A stretch of 64,000 nucleotides of DNA from an uncultured Fibrobacterota bacterium. GTDB taxonomy: Bacteria; Fibrobacterota; Chitinivibrionia; Chitinivibrionales; FEN-1185. Below are positions 7,543 to 33,338 of the stretch, one piece after another. The notes beneath the pieces were generated by a model. That model saw only the letters and a list, made by a program, of their open reading frames with translations. It was not told the origin of the DNA and did not search any database. Location: positions 64,001-128,000 of the forward strand of contig CAVWBU010000049.1 of the NCBI GenBank assembly GCA_963753345.1, written 5' to 3'. The position numbers were made by a program, and so were the translations under genes. Within the stretch, counting starts at the first letter, position 1, and every line of letters starts with the position of its first letter.

Positions 7543-7984
7543 AGTTCGTCTCCTTTGTTAAAGGACTCCGCGAGACGCTCATTAGTCTCAATTGTTAAAT
7601 TTTGCTCCATATTCTCGCCTTCATCATCTGCACGACGTTGATGTGGTTATCCACTTGATCATTGTACCCCTTGACGGCAACCTCGAAATGTTCTTTCGCC
7701 TGGTAGACGGCAGTTTTGCCTGCACCGCCTGTTGGCACACCACGTCCGGGTTTACAGTGTTTTGGCTTTGCTGCATAAAACCTCACTTTCCTTGACATTT
7801 GGTTTTGTGTGTTATTTCAAATGTGAACGCAAATGATACACGGGCCTGACCACGAGCGTATTCCGCAAATGTCAAGCAGCCAGTGGTGCATGGGGAGGGA
7901 GGTTTGTCGAATCAAAGCTTGACAAAGGACACTCTCAATATACAATCGCCGGGGGGGGCATTGTCAAGACAAAACTGGGGATAT

Positions 7985-8051
7985 TTGGGCGTGCGTTCCG
8001 GCTTGCTGTTGCAGGCTACTCCGCAACTTCTCAGTACAATTCCCGCCTAAC
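7985..8051 (-). repeat. Short element sharing family-2 termini
   Basis: Reverse strand reads GTTAGGCGG...GGAACGCACGCCCAA, the same ends as family-2 repeats, but the interior is short and different. Confidence 0.4.
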
Positions 8052-8080
8052 AAAAGAAAAGGCCGCGATCCTCCGCGGCC
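8052..8080 (-). terminator. Rho-independent terminator of hsp20
   Basis: Minus strand GGCCGCGG-AGGAT-CGCGGCC followed by TTTTCTTTT. Confidence 0.7.
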
Positions 8081-8111
8081 CTGCGTCTGCTTCCTCAACA
8101 ACCTGCGCTTC

Positions 8112-8552
8112 TTATTCGACCTTCACCTCAATCGCCTTGGGCTTTGCGGCCTCGGTCTTCCTGAGCGTCAGCTCAAGCAGGCCGTTTGCGTACTTTGCCT
8201 CGACGTGGTCCGCGTCAACGTGGTCGGGAAGCGCGAACTCTCTGCGGAACGAACCGAATCTCCTTTCAAAGTGGTAGTAGCGGTTCTTGTCCCGTTCGGT
8301 CTTCTCTTCCTTCTTCTCGCCGCTGATGGCGAGGACGCCGTTCTTCACCTCAACGGTGATGTCCTTCTTGTCCAGCCCTGGCATGTCCGCCGTGATCTTG
8401 TACGTGTCTTTTTCCTCAACGATGTCGACACGGGGATAGTTGACCAGAGAAATGTCCCGGTCCCATGCGTTGAAGATGCCGTTGCCCAGAAAATCGTCCA
8501 GCAGATTGGACAGGCTGGTGACTGGTGTTTCGTACCTTACGAGCGCTGACAT
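8112..8552 (-). CDS. Hsp20/alpha-crystallin small heat-shock protein
   Basis: PRVDIVE...ADMPGLDKKDI...ERRFGSFRREFALP...AKYANGLLELTL; RBS AGGAGG. Confidence 0.95.
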   Translation of the reverse strand: MSALVRYETPVTSLSNLLDDFLGNGIFNAWDRDISLVNYPRVDIVEEKDTYKITADMPGLDKKDITVEVKNGVLAISGEKKEEKTERDKNRYYHFERRFGSFRREFALPDHVDADHVEAKYANGLLELTLRKTEAAKPKAIEVKVE

Positions 8553-8587
8553 AACTCCTCCTTGTTAAGGTTTGGTGGTTTGACGGT

Positions 8588-8773
8588 TCATATATTCCCG
8601 AGAAACTCCTCCACGGTCGCGCACGTGTTGAGCATGATCGAGAGGTTGGTTATTTCGTCCTTGCTGATGATGGCCTCGCGCTTCGGTCTTCCGCCGAGAA
8701 ACGGTATGTAATCGGGCCTCATGACGTCTTCGAGCTTCACGGACCTTTTGTCGACCACATTCTTGTTTTCCAT
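8588..8773 (-). CDS. Small hypothetical protein (61 aa)
   Basis: GGAGG RBS, coding-like codon use, lies between a sigma-54 promoter and hsp20. Confidence 0.7.
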   Translation of the reverse strand: MENKNVVDKRSVKLEDVMRPDYIPFLGGRPKREAIISKDEITNLSIMLNTCATVEEFLGNI

Positions 8774-8825
8774 ACGCAGCCTCCGTTCACTTGTCCCAAA
8801 ATCTTGTTTTCGCTTGATAAGAAAG

Positions 8826-8840
8826 GCAAGGCCTGTGCCA
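8826..8840 (-). promoter_or_regulatory. Sigma-54 (-24/-12) promoter
   Basis: Minus strand TGGCAC-AGGCC-TTGC, matching the consensus, about 50 nt upstream of the 61-aa ORF. Confidence 0.8.
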
Positions 8841-9051
8841 ATGAAAAAGGTGTTGAAATTGACGAGATTTCAGGGGTGATAAAGCAAGGTGTTTGATGAT
8901 GGAACATCAGTCCAAAGTTTATTGTATGATTATGAAACGTCTTTGGTATGATGCACGAGGTGATTGATCTGCGCATTAGTCAATGATTGATCCGTTCCAC
9001 CGCCAAACGATCTGCGGTCACCGACATTCAATTAAGCACCCATCGCCCGCC

Positions 9052-9221
9052 CGCGCGTTAGGCCGGACCGCAGGGGGCGCAAGAGCGCATTGTCGGCCGA
9101 CCCTCGCCGCAGGCGACTCGGGCGGTCCGGCAACGAGGCGAACAGCCGACGACCCTTGGAAGCACCCGAAGGGGTGGCCCGGAGGGAGGGCCGGCCCGAG
9201 TGCAGCGAGGGAAACGCCCAA
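9052..9221 (+). repeat. Family-2 structured repeat, copy 1 (carries 27-bp insert 9150-9176)
   Basis: CGCGTTAGG..GGACCG...CAACGAGGCGAACAGCCGA...GGAGGGAG...CGCCCAA; homologous to seven other copies. Confidence 0.9.
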
Positions 9222-9272
9222 TTCTTCTTTCAACCTCACTTGTCCTTGCGTATTCTCTTATTTTTACTTCTC

Positions 9273-9932
9273 ATGAAAGTTATTAAAGAATATTCCTGCT
9301 ACCTCTTCGACGCCGACGGAACGCTCCTGGACACCACGGAGCTCATTCACCAGTGCTTCATCTTTACATGCAGGAAATACGGCGGCTTTGAAATTTCCCG
9401 GGAGCGCGTGACCGAGAATATCGGCCTTACGCTCAGGCGCCAGACGGAATTGTATCTTGGTCCGCTCACCGACGACAGGTATAAGACCATTGGCGGCGAC
9501 CACATGAAGTACCAGCTGTCCATTTACCCGCAATACCTCCGGCTTTTTCCCGGCGTGGCAAAGGGCCTTGGGCTCTTGCGCTCGCGGGGAAAGCACTGCG
9601 CCGTGGTGACCTCACGCAGGCGGGAGACGCTTGAACTGTACCTCAGGGAAACCGGGATCCTCGGATATTTTGAGGCGCTGATAACGCCGGAAAGCACGGT
9701 GAAGCACAAACCCGACCCTGAGCCCGTGCTCGCAGCGCTGTCCCAGCTCAAGGTCACCGACAAGGGATCGGTCCTGCTGGTGGGGGATTCCGGGTTCGAC
9801 ATCGAATGCGGGTCGCGCGCGGGCGTCGATACCGCGTATGTCAACAGGAGTCACAACGACTCTTTGACACTTGCGACGCGTCCCACCTATGTGATAGACG
9901 ATTTCATGCAGATCTGCGCGGAAACGGCATAA
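9273..9932 (+). CDS. HAD-superfamily hydrolase (PpaX/Gph-like)
   Basis: LFDADGTLLDT, VVTS, KHKPDPEP and VGDSGFDI motifs; start trimmed to ATG 9273. Confidence 0.9.
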   Translation: MKVIKEYSCYLFDADGTLLDTTELIHQCFIFTCRKYGGFEISRERVTENIGLTLRRQTELYLGPLTDDRYKTIGGDHMKYQLSIYPQYLRLFPGVAKGLGLLRSRGKHCAVVTSRRRETLELYLRETGILGYFEALITPESTVKHKPDPEPVLAALSQLKVTDKGSVLLVGDSGFDIECGSRAGVDTAYVNRSHNDSLTLATRPTYVIDDFMQICAETA

Positions 9933-26013: not shown

Positions 26014-27825
26014 ATGAGAAGGACTGGAAGATCAATATTTTGGCTTTCGTTGATTGTATCGGCGTGCATCGTCCAGGCTCAGGTGTCGACGGGTTTGGTT
26101 GCCCAATACCACTGCGATGAAGGAAGGGACAGCATACTCCACGACAGCGGGCCGTATGCAAACAACATCGCGCTTCATAATGTATTATGGGCGGCGGGTA
26201 AGAGCGGTTCCTGCCTCGTTTTCAACGGGATTAACAGCTATGGAATGGTGACGGCCCAGTCGGGCACGTCGCTTGATTTCGGCGCCGGCGATTTTACGGT
26301 TGCGCTGTGGATCAACACCACGTCACCGTCAAACGCCAGTCACAAGGAGAACATCCTCTCAAAAGGAGACCCTTTCAATACGGGCGTGACGCTCTCCATT
26401 GAGCATGGGATTACCTATGCATGCGTGGGGAGCACCGGATTGGCGGGTTTCAGCTGGTCGATCAAACCGGTAAACGACGGGAGTTGGCATTATTACGTAT
26501 GCGTGAGGAAATCGGGGATTGTTTCGGTATACAACGACACGGTGCTTGTAAGCAGCTACTCATTTTCAGGAAGCGTTACCGTGTCGACGGCAATGTTCCT
26601 TGGAAGGCATGGAGCCGCGGCCGAAGAATATTATAACGGCATGCTCGACGAGATCTCACTGTATTCCCGGGCGCTGTCGTCTTCCGAAATCAGCGCGGGC
26701 TTCCGGTCTGTTGCCATTTCAACAAGCGTGCCCGTGCTTATTCCCATCCCCTCTCCAACCGAAAACCGCCAGCCCACGTTTGCCTGGCATCATGTTTCTT
26801 CGGAGAATTCGTACACCGTCAACATCGACACGAACAGGCAATTCCAATCGGTCCTTATCCACGTTCCGGTGAGCGACACCGTGTTTGTGCCTCTGACGCC
26901 GCTTCCGCTTGGCACGATATACTGGTACGTCGCGTGCAACGATACGCCGGCGGGGAGATATTCAAGCGTCGATTCGGTTGTCCTTGTTGCCCACGATCCT
27001 TATCCTACGGTGTTAATCCCGGTTGCGCCCGACCCGACCGTTGAAAGGAGACCGCGGCTGGCCTGGCACAAGGTTTCGGCCGCCACGCAATATACGTTGA
27101 ACATCGCCGATAATATCGTTTTTTCATCGCCGATTGTCTCGATCCAGCTCAGCGACACTTCGTTTTCACCGCTGAGCGATTTGCCTCTTGGCACCATATA
27201 TTGGGAGGTCAAATCGGACACAAGCCTCAGATTCGCAACAAGCTCATTCACCATTCAGCCGGATTCGATTCCCCTATTGTACAGGTTCAATGGCGCCACG
27301 GTGTTCCAGACCCGGCCCGCGTTCAAATGGCACCCTGTGAGCAGCGCCGCCTCGTACACGCTCCAGGTCGACACGGTTGTGGGCTTTGCCAATCCGGTGT
27401 ATATCATGCCGACGCAAGACACCATGTTCGTACCGCTCATCGACCTCGCGGCGGGGGGCACCTACTTCTGGAGAGTTTCCTGCAGCAGGAACGCATCGCT
27501 CTTCTCGCCCGAGGACACGGTGAGGATTTCCCCAACACCCGTTGTAATTGCTGATAAGAAAATCGGAGATGCGGGCGCCGCCGCCGCCATTCGCCTGGTT
27601 GAGCGCGGCAGCAATCAATATCTGTCGGTGAGAATTCCCGCAGCAAAAGGGTGCATTCTTGTAACGCTGCTGTCCGTTTCGGGGAGAACGCTTTTTCATT
27701 CGGCAATGCAAAACGTGCAAACGCTGGACATCCCGCTAGAATCGAAAATCACGAGCGGCGTTTATATCGTTCGGGTTACAGCGGGCGTCAAGACGTATTC
27801 ATCGAGGGTGTTTTTGGACAAATAA
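26014..27825 (+). CDS. Secreted LamG/concanavalin-like protein with three FN3-like repeats and C-terminal sorting-type domain
   Basis: Signal peptide; DFTVALWI...NDGSWH...GMLDEISLYSRALS; three P.F.WH.VS.A..YTL...YW repeats; SGVYIVRV. Confidence 0.85.
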   Translation: MRRTGRSIFWLSLIVSACIVQAQVSTGLVAQYHCDEGRDSILHDSGPYANNIALHNVLWAAGKSGSCLVFNGINSYGMVTAQSGTSLDFGAGDFTVALWINTTSPSNASHKENILSKGDPFNTGVTLSIEHGITYACVGSTGLAGFSWSIKPVNDGSWHYYVCVRKSGIVSVYNDTVLVSSYSFSGSVTVSTAMFLGRHGAAAEEYYNGMLDEISLYSRALSSSEISAGFRSVAISTSVPVLIPIPSPTENRQPTFAWHHVSSENSYTVNIDTNRQFQSVLIHVPVSDTVFVPLTPLPLGTIYWYVACNDTPAGRYSSVDSVVLVAHDPYPTVLIPVAPDPTVERRPRLAWHKVSAATQYTLNIADNIVFSSPIVSIQLSDTSFSPLSDLPLGTIYWEVKSDTSLRFATSSFTIQPDSIPLLYRFNGATVFQTRPAFKWHPVSSAASYTLQVDTVVGFANPVYIMPTQDTMFVPLIDLAAGGTYFWRVSCSRNASLFSPEDTVRISPTPVVIADKKIGDAGAAAAIRLVERGSNQYLSVRIPAAKGCILVTLLSVSGRTLFHSAMQNVQTLDIPLESKITSGVYIVRVTAGVKTYSSRVFLDK

Positions 27826-28035
27826 GAAATCGGACGCACGAGGGTTTGGAACGGGCATAAGAAGCGTTTTACAAATCCGCGGCGGCAATTCGCCCGAAGG
27901 CATCTCGATGGGCCGGGTTCCGCCTCCGTCGGCGTTTATCGCAGGGGCAACCGTTCTTCTGCGGCAACGGCAGAGCGGCGTTGCGAACAAAGGCGGCGGC
28001 AGGTCTGAAGCGTATTCGCGCCAGTCTAGCCGCCG

Positions 28036-28431
28036 TCACTTCAAATACCCCTCAAGTATCTTCCTGTCCGGCGGCAGCCATTCAAGCCCCTTCGCGCTTT
28101 CCCCGTCCACCCACCTGATCTCCTGGTGCTCCTTCGCAAAAAACTCGTCCCGTCCCGCCCTGCACACAAACGGAATGAGCGTCACCAATTTGTCCGGATA
28201 TTCGAACGTCACCTCTTCAAGTCGTGCCTTCACGGTTATTTCCGCACCCAATTCCTCCATAATTTCCCTGACTATCGCGGCCTCCGGCGTTTCTCCCTTG
28301 CGCACCTTACCTCCCGGGAATTCCCAAAACCCCGCATGGGACTGGCCGCTCCCGCGCTGCGCGGCAAGGATTCTGCCGTCCTTTTCGATGATCGCGCAGG
28401 CCACCAGGACAGGAGTATTGGTTCTCGTCAT
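28036..28431 (-). CDS. NUDIX hydrolase (MutT/NudG-like)
   Basis: WEFPGGKVRKGETPEAAIVREIMEELG Nudix box. Confidence 0.92.
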   Translation of the reverse strand: MTRTNTPVLVACAIIEKDGRILAAQRGSGQSHAGFWEFPGGKVRKGETPEAAIVREIMEELGAEITVKARLEEVTFEYPDKLVTLIPFVCRAGRDEFFAKEHQEIRWVDGESAKGLEWLPPDRKILEGYLK

Positions 28432-28549
28432 TTTCAAAAAATATGTCGTGTGCCCCAGCAGACAAAATTCAAATCCCGAACCGGAAAACGTAACGTATAT
28501 TTTATCTCTCTCGTTAACCATCGTCTCATCCTCCGTAACGGCAAGGCCT

Positions 28550-30547
28550 ATGAACACCGCGTTTTCCCGGTATCCCGCAGCGATGAAAAAGGAGGAATTC
28601 CTCCCCGTGGCGTACCGCTGGATGTATTTGTCAAGAAAGCTCGAAGAAAGGATCGTCGAGCTTTACAAGAAGCGGTACGTGAAGGGAACCGTGACGCTCG
28701 GCATCGGCAACGAGGCGACGGCCGTGGGCATGAGCGCGCCGCTGCGGCCGAAAAAAGACGTGCTCGCGCTCATGCAGCGCGATTTCGTTGCGCACCTGAT
28801 CATGGGCGAGACGCCGTACCGCCTGCTGTGCCAGTACATCGCCAATGCCGACAGCCCCACGCACGGACGCGAGGGGAACGTGCACCACGGCAACGCGGCC
28901 GAGCGCCGCTTCCCCATGATAAGCCATTTGTCGAACATGCTGTCACTTATTGTGGGCGGAACCTGGAGCGCGCGGAAAAACGGCGAGGATGCGGTCGGGC
29001 TCGCCGTCATCGGCGACGGCGGCAGCAGCAAGGGCGAATTCCACGAGTCCATCAACATCGCGTCGGTGCTCAAGGTGCCGGTGCTGTTCCTTATCCAGAA
29101 CAACCACTATTCCTATTCAACGCCCACCAAACTCCAATACGCGTGCGAAAAGCTCTCGGACCGGGCCGGCGGATACGGCATCAAGGGAAAAACCATCGAC
29201 GGCACCGACGTGTGGGAAGTGTATTCGGCGGTGTGCGCCGCGCTTGACGAAATGACCGCCACGTCGCTTCCGTACATTCTCGAATGCATGACGCTGCGTC
29301 TCGAAGGACACGCCGTGTACGACAAGGCAGAATATGTTACCAAAGAGGAGCGTGACGAGTGGCTCACCCGCGAGCCGCTGATGCAGGCGCGGCGCGCGCT
29401 GCTTGATAGCGGATGCGCCGAGGCGGCCGTTGCCGGCATCGAGCGGCAGGCGGAGGAAGAAGCCGAGGCTGCGGTGCGGAAGGCGCTTGTGCCGCCCAGG
29501 CCGGACCCGGTGATAACCGCGGGCGCGGTGTTCGCGGAAAGCAAGCCGTTCCCCGTGTGCAAGCCGTTTTTTGCCGGGAAGGTTAAGTTCATCAACGCGG
29601 TGACGCTTGCGCAGGACTACCTTCTCGCCAACGAACCTTCGGCCGTGCTCCTGGGACTGGACATCGGGCCGTACGGCTCCGCGTTCAAAACGTGCAAGGG
29701 ACTCTTTGACAAGTACGGAAGGGGCCGCGTGATGGACATGCCGCTCGCCGAGTCGGCCATTGCCGGGTTCGCGCTTGGCGCATCGCAGACAGGCTCGCGT
29801 CCCATCATCGAATTCCAGTTCGCCGATTTCTCGACCGAAAGCGTCACCCAGCTCGGGCTCAACGCCGGCACCTGGTATTTCCGCAGCGGCAGGGAAGCGC
29901 CGCTGCTCGTGAGGCTTCCCTGCGGCGGCGGCATCACGCTCGGCGCGTTCCACTCCGGCGAGTTCGAGGGACTGTGGTCGAGGTTCTGCGGCGTCAAGCT
30001 TTTGTATCCCTTTACGCCGCAGGAAATGTTCGAAGCGCTCGTGGCAGGTTTCTACGACCCGAACCCGTGCCTTGTGTTCGAGCACAAGCTGCTGTACGGA
30101 AGCGCCAAGGGGTCGGACATCGACTTCGACGGCGACCTTTCGAAAGTCTGGAAGGAGCGTCAGTACGCCGCCGGGACGGATTGCACCGTGGTGGGAATCG
30201 GCGCCATGCTCGACGTTGCGATGGCGGCCTGCGGGGATCTGGGCGGCAGCTTCGACATCTTCAACCCATTCGTCCTCAACCCGCTGAAGCCTTCACAAAT
30301 AATACAATCGGTGAAGAAGACGGGCCGGCTGTGCGTGGTGCAGGAAAGCACGGCAAGCGCAGGACTCGGCGACAGGATTATTTCCACGGTGTGCAGGGAA
30401 TGTTTTTCCTTTTTGAAAAGAGCGCCCGTCCTCGTGAGCGCGCCCGATATGCCGGTGCCGTTTGCGCCCGAGCTTGAAACGCTGTACCGGCCGGGCCGGG
30501 ACCGGGTGAAAGAGGCCATTTCAACATTGACAGGAGATTCACGGTGA
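28550..30547 (+). CDS. Fused E1 alpha/beta ThDP-dependent 2-oxoacid dehydrogenase
   Basis: GDGGSSKG...IQNN ThDP motif, RLEGHAVYD loop; beta part DMPLAESAI, EFQFADF, GAFHS, FEHKLLY. Confidence 0.93.
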   Translation: MNTAFSRYPAAMKKEEFLPVAYRWMYLSRKLEERIVELYKKRYVKGTVTLGIGNEATAVGMSAPLRPKKDVLALMQRDFVAHLIMGETPYRLLCQYIANADSPTHGREGNVHHGNAAERRFPMISHLSNMLSLIVGGTWSARKNGEDAVGLAVIGDGGSSKGEFHESINIASVLKVPVLFLIQNNHYSYSTPTKLQYACEKLSDRAGGYGIKGKTIDGTDVWEVYSAVCAALDEMTATSLPYILECMTLRLEGHAVYDKAEYVTKEERDEWLTREPLMQARRALLDSGCAEAAVAGIERQAEEEAEAAVRKALVPPRPDPVITAGAVFAESKPFPVCKPFFAGKVKFINAVTLAQDYLLANEPSAVLLGLDIGPYGSAFKTCKGLFDKYGRGRVMDMPLAESAIAGFALGASQTGSRPIIEFQFADFSTESVTQLGLNAGTWYFRSGREAPLLVRLPCGGGITLGAFHSGEFEGLWSRFCGVKLLYPFTPQEMFEALVAGFYDPNPCLVFEHKLLYGSAKGSDIDFDGDLSKVWKERQYAAGTDCTVVGIGAMLDVAMAACGDLGGSFDIFNPFVLNPLKPSQIIQSVKKTGRLCVVQESTASAGLGDRIISTVCRECFSFLKRAPVLVSAPDMPVPFAPELETLYRPGRDRVKEAISTLTGDSR

Positions 30548-31866
30548 GCAACGACGTTTTCAGAATTCCGCTGTACCTGCCGTCGCAGGCGGCCGCCGAA
30601 ACCGAAGCGACCATCACCAAGTGGAACTTTTCGGCGGGCGATGCGTTCACAAAAGGCCAGATCCTCGGCGAAATCGAGAGCGCCAAGGCCTCGTTCGATT
30701 TCGAGGCGCCCTGCGACGGGACCGTGGTGAGGCTCATTTCAGTCGAGGGCGACACGGTGTCGTTCGAAGAGCCGGTGATGGAAATCGAGACGAGCGACGT
30801 GTCGATGAAAAACGCCATCCCCGCAGCTCAGGCGGCAAAGGCCGCGCCGCCCAGGCCGGCGCCGCGGCCAGCGGCCGCGGCTTCTTTCGCGGACAGCGGG
30901 CGGCAGGTGAGCATCCTGGGTATCGGTGGGTATCTGCCCGACCGTGTGGTTTCCAACAAGGAACTGCTGCGCGAGTTCCCGTCGGTCACCGAAGAGTACA
31001 TTTTCGGGGTCACCGGCATTCGGGAGCGGCGGTGGGCCAGGGACGGCGAGAAACCGTCCGACATGGCCTTTCATGCGTCAAGCGAGGCAATCCGCCGATC
31101 CGGGCTCGACCCGAAGGACATCGGCGGCATCATCGTCTCCACCGAGACGCCCGACATTACCATGCCGTCAACCGCGTGCATCCTGCAGGATATGCTCGGC
31201 CTGCGCGGGATTCCCGCCTTCGACCTCAAGGCCGCATGCTCGGGCTGGCTGTACGGCCTCACCCTGGCCAAGGGCCTCGTGCTTTCGGGCGTGGCCGACG
31301 ACATCCTGGTGACGGGCGTGGAGATGCAGTCGCAGCTCCTTGACAAAACAGACATGGGCACCTACTTCCTCTTCGGCGACGGCGCCGGCGCCGCCGTGGT
31401 GTCGGGCAGGCGGCCCGGCCACGCCATGAAACAGTCTATTCTCAAGGCCGATTCCAAGGGACTGCCGCTTGCAAGGCGGGCGGTTCCGGGCTTCAAGATA
31501 CCCTTGGGCTTGGAGAATCTCAACCCGTGGATACGGCTCGACGGCCATGCGCTGTTCCGCTTCGCCACCGGCGGGTTCGCCGCAATAATCCAGGACGTCA
31601 TTGCCGGCAGCGGCTGGAACCCGGAGGACGTGGGATGGGTGGTGCCTCACCAGGCCAACGCGCGCATCCTCAAGGCGGCGGCGCAGAAATGCGGCGTGCC
31701 GTTCGAGCGGTTCTACATCAACATCGACCGCCTCGGCAACACGTCGAGCGCGAGCATCCCGCTCGCACTGATGGATTTGCAGAAGGACCTCAAGTCAGGT
31801 GACAAACTCGTTTTATGCTCGGTCGGGGCGGGCGTCACCATTGCGGCGCTTACCGTGGAATGGTAG
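30544..31866 (+). CDS. Lipoyl domain fused to beta-ketoacyl-ACP synthase III (FabH-like)
   Basis: Lipoyl domain with EIESAKA lysine motif, Ala/Pro linker, then KAS III with AACSG, FGDGAGA, PHQAN and GNTSSAS. Overlaps the E1 stop (GTGA). Confidence 0.92.
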   Translation: MSNDVFRIPLYLPSQAAAETEATITKWNFSAGDAFTKGQILGEIESAKASFDFEAPCDGTVVRLISVEGDTVSFEEPVMEIETSDVSMKNAIPAAQAAKAAPPRPAPRPAAAASFADSGRQVSILGIGGYLPDRVVSNKELLREFPSVTEEYIFGVTGIRERRWARDGEKPSDMAFHASSEAIRRSGLDPKDIGGIIVSTETPDITMPSTACILQDMLGLRGIPAFDLKAACSGWLYGLTLAKGLVLSGVADDILVTGVEMQSQLLDKTDMGTYFLFGDGAGAAVVSGRRPGHAMKQSILKADSKGLPLARRAVPGFKIPLGLENLNPWIRLDGHALFRFATGGFAAIIQDVIAGSGWNPEDVGWVVPHQANARILKAAAQKCGVPFERFYINIDRLGNTSSASIPLALMDLQKDLKSGDKLVLCSVGAGVTIAALTVEW

Positions 31867-31920
31867 AGTGGGGAAGGGTTTTAGGAGCGACCGGTAACGT
31901 CTAAGCCCATTTCATATTTT

Positions 31921-32013
31921 GTGTGCCACGAGCATCCTTGATCGTGGCGATGGTTCATGGTCTCGTTGAAAATCAAACGGTCAAGAGCACTGTCGTGGAC
32001 GACAGTGGCACAC
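31921..32013. repeat. REP-like element with terminal inverted repeats
   Basis: GTGTGCCAC...GTGGCACAC ends; internal hairpin CACTGTCGT-GG-ACGACAGTG. Confidence 0.6.
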
Positions 32014-32058
32014 GTTCTTTGATTTCTGTTCGCTCAGGCCACCCGTCCGTGTGTTGTT

Positions 32059-33338
32059 CTATCTGACAATATCAACCCTCCTGACCTCGCTTGCGGTTTC
32101 GGACCGCAGGCTGACCCAATACAATCCGCTTGCCGTCGTTCCGTGGTTCCACACGCATTTCCGGAGGCCACTACCAGTCGCACCTTCGAACAGCGTGGCA
32201 ACGTTACGGCCGTCTGCGGTAAACACTTTGATACTTGCCTTTTGCGATACTCCGGCATTGAACAAAACAGTTGTGACCCTGCTCGCGCCATCTTTTTCTA
32301 TTACTAGTTTTTTTGCGGCCTGGGACTGAAATTGTTCGCGATTCTTTTTCAATGCAGCATTTACTTCGGCGAGCGGCCGGCGGTACAGGGTGCCGGACGA
32401 CAGGGTGCCCGACCATACGGTTGCGTAAAGATATGCGGTATCAACGGCAATCGAAACGGTGCTTGTTTCCGGCGACATGCTGATGTCTGTCCAGGAAGCG
32501 CTGTCTTTGGGTGAAGCATACACACCGCTATCAGTCGCCGTGAATAGCGTCGTCTTACTTAGGCACATGTCCTGAACATTGCGATTGATCGTGAAGGAGT
32601 TCCACGTTAGTCCGCTGTCTTTGGAGTATGACAATCCAGAATATCCCCATCCCGATGAAGATCCGGGAGATAGATTATTCACCCAGACGGTTTTCTGATC
32701 AGTAACCATTCTGGTATTGTCAATATAGTTCTTTACCATATTTAGACCGTAGTTCGCCTCCTGCCATGCTAATCCATCGTTACGGAGCGTGAAATGCCGG
32801 CAGAACCTCCAAGCAAGAGAATATTTCCGACAATGCAAGCGGACCAAGGACCGTAGATCGACCCAGACCCCGAAAATAAATCATAATTTGTATTGAGAAT
32901 TTTCCATGTTTGGCCGTTGTCTACAGACAAGAAGTACCTGCTGCTAACGAGTAGAATTCTGTTGTCCTGAACCGAAAGGGCAAAGTATAGGCCGAAGTAC
33001 ACATTATATTCGCGACTCGGGGTGCCGACTACATTCCAACTTGTCCCATGGTCGGTGGAAGCAACCAGACCGGAATCTCCGGTCGCATATATTGTGGTGC
33101 CATTCCCAGCCAAATTGCTGAAAGTCTTCATTCCTACTACATTTTGCCAAGTATTCCCGTTATCTCCTGATCTGAGAACTCCGTTTGTTGTGCTTGCAAA
33201 TACAAAGGAACCTGCAACGGCAACTCTCGTGACTCCTGTATCCGCAATTTGCCAGCCGGCAAAGCTTGTGAATGGGCTGGACAGCACTCCAACAAGGCAC
33301 CCCGCACCAACTACGCGGAAAACCAATTCCTTTTTCAT
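32059..33338 (-). CDS. Secreted BNR/Asp-box beta-propeller protein with C-terminal sorting-type domain (frameshift near 32780)
   Basis: AGGAGG RBS, signal peptide; SGDNGNTW, STDHGTSW, SVDNGQTW and SKDSGLTW Asp-boxes; ASGLYWVSL. Confidence 0.8.

Follow-up and report, generated by a model that had tools for sequence, protein, structure and literature searches.

A fused E1 and a lipoyl–KAS III protein as a candidate system for starting fatty acid synthesis from 2-oxoacids in Fibrobacterota and other phyla

A gene pair encoding a fused E1 and a lipoyl–KAS III protein

The stretch analyzed here (the window) comprises 64,000 nucleotides of contig CAVWBU010000049.1, positions 64,001 to 128,000, from an uncultured Fibrobacterota bacterium (assembly GCA_963753345.1). 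It carries on the forward strand a two-gene pair, consisting of a gene for a fused E1 alpha-beta, the thiamine diphosphate (ThDP)-dependent 2-oxoacid decarboxylase/dehydrogenase component (28550..30547, 665 aa), followed by a gene for a protein in which a lipoyl domain is fused to a beta-ketoacyl-acyl carrier protein (ACP) synthase III (KAS III, or FabH; 30544..31866, 440 aa, GTG start), the latter supported by Pfam and hidden Markov model (HMM) matches and by homologues. The two genes overlap at GTGA (30544-30547), the TGA stop of E1 lying at 30545-30547 and the GTG start of the fusion at 30544-30546, and an AGGAG ribosome-binding site (30532-30536) is readable seven bases ahead of the GTG, which together suggest translational coupling of the two genes. 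The initial annotation, made from the letters of the sequence, had described a fused E1 overlapping a gene for a lipoyl domain, an Ala/Pro linker and a KAS III, with neither an E2 core nor an E3 in the window. Pfam and HMM matches confirmed this description, all of the motifs that it had quoted (EIESAKA, AACSG, PHQAN, GNTSS, EEYIFGVTG and DMGT) are present, and we found no PF00198 E2 core in the window or in the fusion protein and no E3 above cut-off in the window.

The E1 matched PF00676, PF02779 and PF02780, all three above cut-off, with E1_dh at residues 25-318 (~28622-29503, E 1e-49) covering the alpha part, Transket_pyr at residues 345-516 (~29582-30097) covering the pyrimidine-binding part of E1 beta, and Transketolase_C at residues 541-653 (~30170-30508). 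With these three domains in one open reading frame, the protein belongs to the heterotetrameric type of 2-oxoacid dehydrogenase E1s, its alpha and beta parts being fused. The frame extends over 27908-30547, and its likeliest start is the Met at 28550, because relatives (L035, L036 and L042) align from residue 1. The translation also shows a ThDP motif, GDG-x26-NN. The nearest solved chains were a mixture of E1 subunits of branched-chain 2-oxoacid dehydrogenase (BCKDH) and pyruvate dehydrogenase (PDH) with similar scores, and the E1 scored 198 on TIGR03182, far under its cut-off of 394 and far below PDH equivalog cut-offs.

Lipoyl domain, linker and condensing domain of the fusion protein

The N-terminal part of the fusion contains a PF00364 (Biotin_lipoyl) domain at residues 12-81 (30577..30786, E 1e-11), whose predicted lipoyl-lysine, Lys48 (codon 30685-30687), stands in an E-S-A-K motif followed by FDFEAPCDG. 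E45-S46-A47-K48 is invariant in 119/119 close homologues. Biotin-type carriers have a Met-Lys-Met motif. A biotin carrier was rejected here on the basis of the motif (ESAK/ESDK/EGDK) and of the ranking in the PDB, where the top 15 matches to the N-terminal 100 residues were all lipoyl domains of E2 or of E3-binding protein (E 2e-11 to 3e-5) and the first biotin carrier ranked 16th. A lipoyl family signature, (E/D)S(A/D)K(S/A)xFDFEAPCDG, is common to three phyla. Its FDFEAPCDG segment (30700-30726, residues 53-61), conserved in Fibrobacterota, Planctomycetota and Opitutales, includes a Cys nine residues past the lipoyl-lysine; the idea that this Cys57 could be the arm's redox partner was discarded, as Gln occupies the place in the single-chain protein of Anthocerotibacter.

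The lipoyl domain is joined to the condensing domain by a flexible Ala/Pro-rich linker of ~25 residues (residues ~93-117; 30820..30894), the length and sequence of which differ among homologues, and the window fusion has no PF02817 match, that is, no E3-binding or peripheral subunit-binding domain (PSBD). In an AlphaFold2 model of the fusion, with a mean predicted local distance difference test score (pLDDT) of 80.5, the N-terminal domain (residues 6-83) is all-beta, the KAS III body is confident, the linker (93-117) has pLDDT <50, and a floppy loop at 306-340, extra relative to FabH, is of low confidence. A complex prediction combining the lipoyl domain (1-95) with a KAS III dimer (118-440, two copies) gave a score of 0.00 and weighs neither way.

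The KAS III domain (residues 121-440; 30904..31863), placed by NF006829 and by alignments with FabH structures in the PDB, scored 311.8 bits on NF006829 against a cut-off of 249, and the fusion also exceeded the cut-offs of PF08541 (101.7) and PF08545 (74.9). The catalytic triad of Cys232 (31237-31239), His369 (31648-31650) and Asn399 (31738-31740) is invariant in all 119 close homologues, as is Arg374, the equivalent of the ACP-docking Arg249 of E. coli FabH, which the initial annotation had rightly read as kept. The triad, Arg374 and the Lys48 motif are also retained in the variants from Planctomycetota and Opitutales and in the single-chain variants described below. Such invariance of the triad and Arg374 indicates that the condensation machinery is under selection.

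Distribution in Fibrobacterota and other phyla

A word-indexed search gave at least 120 homologues among the matches listed, down to 58% identity, nearly all of ~440 aa with PF00364, PF08545 and PF08541, and originating from Chitinivibrionales, Chitinispirillaceae and 'Fibrobacter sp.' metagenome-assembled genomes (MAGs). Across a phylum set of 296 genomes, which takes in the unpublished genome G253 (no fusion), the fusion is carried by 58, comprising 56 with full-length genes and 2 with pieces at contig ends; the carriers fall in several families of the order of the window genome and in one other family, and none belongs to the largest family (151 genomes). E1 lies directly upstream of the fusion in 29 of 30 loci of the phylum, the single miss being a contig end. 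An assembly read-through, which had been named as one explanation that would undo the reading, is rejected by the recurrence of the fusion in more than 100 homologues, in 58/296 genomes and in other phyla, and chance association is excluded by the E-values and the conservation in those homologues.

Beyond the phylum, a cross-phylum scan (one genome per species; 80 loci returned) and an exhaustive profile search over 1.84 billion representatives were carried out. The combination of Biotin_lipoyl and KAS III, singled out in the initial annotation as the architecture to look for, was found again in several phyla, in hundreds of proteins and in at least three layouts. The first is the operon type of the window, which is also present in Planctomycetota MAGs (Thermoguttaceae, Pirellulales and 'Planctomycetaceae') with fusions of 54-59% identity; E1 is directly upstream in every scanned Fibrobacterota or Planctomycetota locus having upstream sequence.

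The second layout, the PSBD type, occurs in Opitutales (Verrucomicrobiota), including the isolates Pelagicoccus mobilis KCTC 13126, Pelagicoccus sp. SDUM812002 and strain DG1235, as a relative of 520-535 aa with ~39% identity. The Pelagicoccus protein contains Biotin_lipoyl (6-78), E3_binding/PSBD (138-172) and KAS III, as do P0125 and P0131, so by its domain content this form equals an E2 with its whole N-terminal half kept and FabH standing in for the acyltransferase core. No E1 was found inside 8 kb of the fusion at the Opitutales loci. The genomes contain an orphan fused E1 alpha-beta, distant from any E2 and 41% identical to the window E1 over the full length. Fusion and orphan E1 each occur in 17 of the 151 sampled genomes of the order, and these are the identical 17 genomes, with the two genes unlinked (for example, at 4.60 and 4.81 Mb in G427).

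In the third layout, E1_dh, Transket_pyr, Transketolase_C, Biotin_lipoyl and KAS III are united in single chains of 1124 and 1142 aa. One of these, P0144 (WP_218080544.1), comes from the isolate Anthocerotibacter panamensis on a 4.19-Mb contig, and the other, P0150, heads a 9-member cluster of 1141-1147 aa; four further single chains measure 1126-1154 aa. Co-occurrence with a fused E1, which the initial annotation had proposed to test, is thus found as adjacency, as perfect co-occurrence of unlinked genes and as covalent fusion, three kinds of evidence for joint work of E1 and the lipoyl–KAS III protein that are not statistically independent in related genomes. The ESM Atlas holds more lipoyl and KAS III clusters, one of them of 858 aa with 130 members, containing Transketolase_C, Biotin_lipoyl and KAS III and commonest in Spirochaetota; a fourth layout of E1 beta, lipoyl domain and FabH is a lead from this cluster and is treated only as such.

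E2, E3, lipoylation and KAS III genes in carrier genomes

In the window genome (94% complete), the single PF00198 core is SucB, located in a sucCD-sucA-sucB cluster on another contig, and the E1_dh genes are the window E1, SucA and one weak match on contig C15. The E3 and lipoylation genes that the initial annotation had proposed to seek elsewhere in the genome yielded several matches: a full lipoamide dehydrogenase (E3) on contig C36 (437 bits, cut-off 409), two lipA, two PF03099-family (lipoate-ligase family) genes and GcvH. The absence of an E2 partner is broader than the window, as 18 of the 58 fusion genomes lack any PF00198 match, 15 of the 18 being at least 90% complete, and in these carriers the KAS III fusion is therefore the only possible lipoyl partner for E1. 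Of 5 E2-less carriers tested, 4 had an E3 above cut-off. Because lipA is present in 76 of 81 genomes of the order, it is uninformative on carriers versus non-carriers and was dropped as an argument.

These genome contents bear on a conceivable explanation in which an ordinary acyl-CoA-using FabH bears the lipoyl domain as an appendage for regulation, redox sensing or docking and E1 works with another partner. We found nothing directly in its favor. The E1 is without another lipoyl partner in the 18 carriers having no E2 core, E1 and fusion are adjacent, perfectly co-occurring or covalently fused, the lipoyl-lysine motif is invariant, and the Opitutales form has a PSBD, the module recruiting E1 and E3 in real E2s, all of which make an appendage very improbable.

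Several gene calls of the window genome around these functions deserve mention. The two lipA copies have near-equal scores (G000:C29:8217-9071 and G000:C30:2018-2872; 357.8 and 356.7 bits) and may reflect a redundant assembly or a real duplication. In the 2-oxoglutarate dehydrogenase/tricarboxylic acid cycle cluster (L002, on G000:C21), the lipoamide dehydrogenase after sucB (7663-8178) is a 171-aa N-terminal fragment and the citrate synthase (8371-9530) is split into open reading frames of 234 and 152 aa, which could be due to frameshifts, pseudogenes or assembly errors.

A canonical fabH is also present in the window genome, within a plsX-fabH-fabD-fabG-acpP-fabF cluster. Weak KAS III-like genes in this genome are G000:C40:62589-62861 (L004; 46.7 bits on PF08541, in a 590-aa open frame) and G000:C21:130710-130940 (25.8 bits). 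In genome G074, of the same order and 94% complete, the fusion (C12:57620-58966) is the only PF08541 match, and in G003 and G076 it is accompanied by weak KAS III-like matches only, so that certain lineages may have no initiating synthase other than the fusion.

The presence of the canonical fabH raises the alternative that the same machine operates on an unusual 2-oxoacid for a specialized product, for example a lipid of a special kind, a starter of aryl or dicarboxylic type or a precursor of a cofactor, as with 3-oxopimeloyl-ACP, which the KAS III-like BioZ makes, rather than serving as a bulk primer. Besides the canonical gene, the patchy distribution (58/296 and 17/151 genomes) and the occurrence of 3-oxopimeloyl-ACP synthases among the solved relatives of the domain (E 1e-35 to 1e-36) speak for it, whereas the domain is far nearer to housekeeping FabHs (E 2e-66) than to enzymes of the BioZ kind, the loci of three phyla show no tailoring or cluster genes conserved around the fusion, and G074 has the fusion as the only KAS III found. 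We regard a specialized product as rather unlikely.

The acyl-CoA-binding site of the KAS III domain

The available text of PMC4606726 describes E. coli FabH as stacking the adenine of CoA between Trp32 and Arg151 and as hydrogen-bonding the phosphopantetheine through Arg36. Three solved FabHs show DEWI..RTG and DR.T at these places, and canonical-length FabH representatives have W32 in 98/103, R36 in 88/103 and R151 in 90/103. The window protein carries Tyr152, Val156 and Met271 at the positions of Trp32, Arg36 and Arg151, respectively. All three replacements had been taken in the initial annotation as changes of the CoA site; two of them proved to be family traits, W32Y and R36V being invariant in 119/119 close homologues, and the third did not, as the R151 position reads M68/R35/K13 in the same set. 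A comparison of this site covered 34 rows, namely the operon-type fusions (20), the PSBD-type fusions (13) and P0126. Operon-type fusions have Y and V at positions 32 and 36 in 20/20 with a variable third position, and PSBD-type fusions have E or Y at 32, V, L, I or T at 36, and H, Y or R at 151. Two single-chain proteins keep W32 and R36 and have V or P at position 151. Judged from its residues, the window KAS III lacks the acyl-CoA-binding-site feature of the FabH family.

Proposed mechanism and its main rival

We propose that E1 and the lipoyl–KAS III protein probably constitute a two-component fatty-acid priming machine, in which E1 would acylate the lipoyl arm and the arm would prime the FabH Cys for condensation with malonyl-ACP. 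This order of events had been put forward in the initial annotation and is supported by the comparative evidence, with the direct transfer as its conjectural element. In the first step, the fused E1 with ThDP would decarboxylate a 2-oxoacid and reductively acylate the lipoyl group on Lys48. In the second, the acyl-dihydrolipoyl arm on its ~25-residue linker would enter the pantetheine tunnel of KAS III and pass the acyl group to Cys232; this would be the new step, and we infer it because acyl-lipoyl in E2-less carriers has nowhere else to go. His369 and Asn399 would then decarboxylate malonyl-ACP docked at Arg374, yielding 3-ketoacyl-ACP for type II fatty acid synthesis, and the dihydrolipoyl arm would finally be re-oxidized by the E3 encoded elsewhere in the genome. 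The predicted net reaction is 2-oxoacid + malonyl-ACP + NAD+ -> 3-ketoacyl-ACP + 2 CO2 + NADH, with no acyl-CoA intermediate. Decarboxylation and reductive acylation by E1, condensation by FabH and re-oxidation by E3 are textbook chemistry of the parts.

As a first guess, branched-chain 2-oxoacids could be the substrate, since neither a BCKDH nor a PDH E2 exists in the window genome, which does possess a canonical FabH for acetyl-CoA. The other option is pyruvate, above all in genomes whose sole KAS III is the fusion: in G074, with the fusion as its only PF08541 match, a general primer would be required, for instance acetyl derived from pyruvate.

On a wider scale, these proteins may well represent a new multienzyme class, a 2-oxoacid dehydrogenase-like complex with KAS III as the E2 core that would start fatty acids from 2-oxoacids on a lipoyl arm without acyl-CoA. 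The candidate class would span the three layouts in Fibrobacterota, Planctomycetota, Verrucomicrobiota and Gloeobacteria-like cyanobacteria, with Spirochaetota as a lead only, and would apparently provide the sole KAS III in some lineages.

The main rival holds that KAS III replaces the E2 core and passes the acyl group from the arm via Cys232 to free CoA, making the pair a PDH- or BCKDH-like acyl-CoA generator. The loading step of FabH is chemically reversible, which lends this half-reaction plausibility, and many carriers are without a PDH- or BCKDH-type E2. The retention of Arg at the R151 position in 35/119 close homologues and of W32 and R36 in the single-chain variant points the same way. 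Set against it, His369, Asn399 and Arg374, needed only for the decarboxylative condensation of malonyl-ACP, are invariant in all variants, and W32 and R36 are replaced in 20/20 operon-type and 13/13 PSBD-type rows. Release of acyl-CoA is thus unlikely, and the priming machine is the reading that we prefer.

A number of points weigh against the priming machine as well. The CoA-contact residues retained in some homologues and variants mean that the loss of CoA binding is not uniform, and the KAS III part scored 284.5 on TIGR00747, slightly below the cut-off of 292.1. The window variant is without a PSBD for access of E1 and E3 to the arm. Lipid context is absent from the gene neighborhood. An E2 core is present in 40 of the 58 carriers, its identity (SucB) being established in the window genome only, and no E3 at E<=1e-40 was found in the E2-less carrier G030. 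Related genomes are not independent of one another, so the co-occurrence counts overstate the evidence. That Lys48 is lipoylated, that the acyl group is transferred to Cys232 and that CoA is dispensable are, moreover, all things that we infer.

Phylogeny of the KAS III domains

A 'quick' IQ-TREE phylogeny covered 82 KAS III domains, comprising 36 fusion rows and 46 canonical rows, the latter being a random 45 of the 103 representatives (58 left out) plus the own FabH of the window genome. The operon-type and PSBD-type fusions, including one 333-aa protein, form one clade with a Shimodaira–Hasegawa-like approximate likelihood ratio test (SH-aLRT) support of 96. Within it, the operon type has a support of 100, and Fibrobacterota (support 93) are placed among Planctomycetota rows. 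The single-chain proteins fall into a clade of their own (support 99), which is weakly joined to the others (support 71), and the canonical FabH of the window genome falls elsewhere in the tree, away from the fusion clade. From this placement, the lipoyl fusion would be old and would have moved between phyla as a unit with E1. Many Planctomycetota E1s (L044-L081) share 60-62% identity with the window E1, whereas those of other Fibrobacterota families (L039-L049) share 54-58%; these identities and the tree suggest operon transfer between phyla.

Two KAS IIIs of canonical length lie inside fused clades, P0141 (333 aa) in the Opitutales PSBD type and P0245 (326 aa) beside Anthocerotibacter, and could be truncated gene calls or cases of secondary lipoyl loss.

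Relation to known systems and significance

No description of a lipoyl–KAS III protein was found in a full-text literature search, the scope of which mostly excluded subscription journals. The system appears to be built from two known machineries. With 2-oxoacid dehydrogenase complexes having an alpha2beta2-type E1 (BCKDH and Gram-positive-type PDH, where E2 consists of lipoyl domain, PSBD and acyltransferase core), it shares the Pfam families of E1, an E2-type lipoyl domain with its lysine motif and an Ala/Pro linker; the Opitutales relatives share the PSBD too, and the window genome shares the E3 and lipoylation genes. Unlike these complexes, the window system has KAS III in place of the PF00198 core, a fused E1 alpha/beta and no PSBD, and its predicted product is 3-ketoacyl-ACP rather than acyl-CoA. 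The fusion is not an E2, because the defining PF00198 core is lacking, although its lipoyl domain is E2-like.

With FabH (E. coli 1HND and T. thermophilus 1UB7), the fusion shares the full-length fold, the HMM match, the Cys-His-Asn triad and the ACP-docking Arg. It differs from FabH in the N-terminal lipoyl domain, in W32 changed to Y (or E) and R36 to V (or L, I, T), in further fusion-specific residues, namely W235 (canonical F), F275 (E. coli Ile155), R312, C425 and V427, in the extra loop 306-340 and in its separate clade. The position of F275 lies at the tunnel mouth according to the available text of PMC4606726.

The nearest documented functional precedent is, by analogy, the QncN/QncL/QncM (SclQ1-4) system of tetrahydroisoquinoline and scleric acid biosynthesis, for which the available portion of PMC6335953 describes a ThDP-dependent E1-like enzyme and a lipoyl-acyltransferase protein passing a C2 glycolicacyl unit to an ACP. 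Both systems would have an E1-like enzyme loading a lipoyl arm and send the acyl unit into a carrier-protein pathway, not the CoA pool, but the Qnc/Scl system keeps an E2-type acyltransferase, has a dedicated ACP, uses ketose phosphates and has no condensing enzyme fused to a lipoyl domain. The Bkd and FabH route to branched-chain fatty acids in Bacillus and Staphylococcus, which turns a 2-oxoacid into the primer according to the available parts of PMC10026030 and PMC11167679, follows the same overall logic. It goes through free branched acyl-CoA made by a complete E1/E2/E3 complex, and the physical fusion is predicted to skip this CoA step. Kaneda is said to have proposed a 2-oxoacid 'decarboxylase'-dependent priming of Bacillus branched-chain fatty acids, which would be a conceptual forerunner.

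The known ways of bacterial fatty-acid initiation, as listed in the available text of PMC10869286, are FabH with acyl-CoA, malonyl-ACP decarboxylation and a FabB-type route. There is a good chance that the present system adds a new initiation route. If true, it would be a further way of starting bacterial fatty acid synthesis and the first lipoyl swinging arm to feed a carbon–carbon bond-forming enzyme instead of an acyltransferase, and it would explain the use of 2-oxoacid primers by organisms without a PDH or BCKDH E2. The automatic names 'beta-ketoacyl-ACP synthase 3' and '2-oxoisovalerate dehydrogenase E1 component' would then need correcting. The system could also offer a compact one- or two-protein module with which branched or odd-chain fatty acids might be engineered directly from amino-acid precursors, and cultured carriers (Pelagicoccus and Anthocerotibacter) make the mechanism directly testable.

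Gene neighborhood

No PP-binding gene adjoins the E1/fusion pair, and a promoter/terminator scan of 27700-32300 gave nothing above shuffles. The neighbors of the pair in the window are an LpxL-like acyltransferase, TPR, PMT_2, a methyltransferase, Laminin_G_3, BNR, a TonB receptor and an AMP-binding enzyme; as they are unrelated and unconserved, there is no wider operon. The gene directly upstream of E1 (26014-27825, forward strand), not conserved together with the pair, encodes a secreted-looking protein of 603 aa with Laminin_G_3, several repeats of ~90 aa and a beta-rich C-terminal tail.

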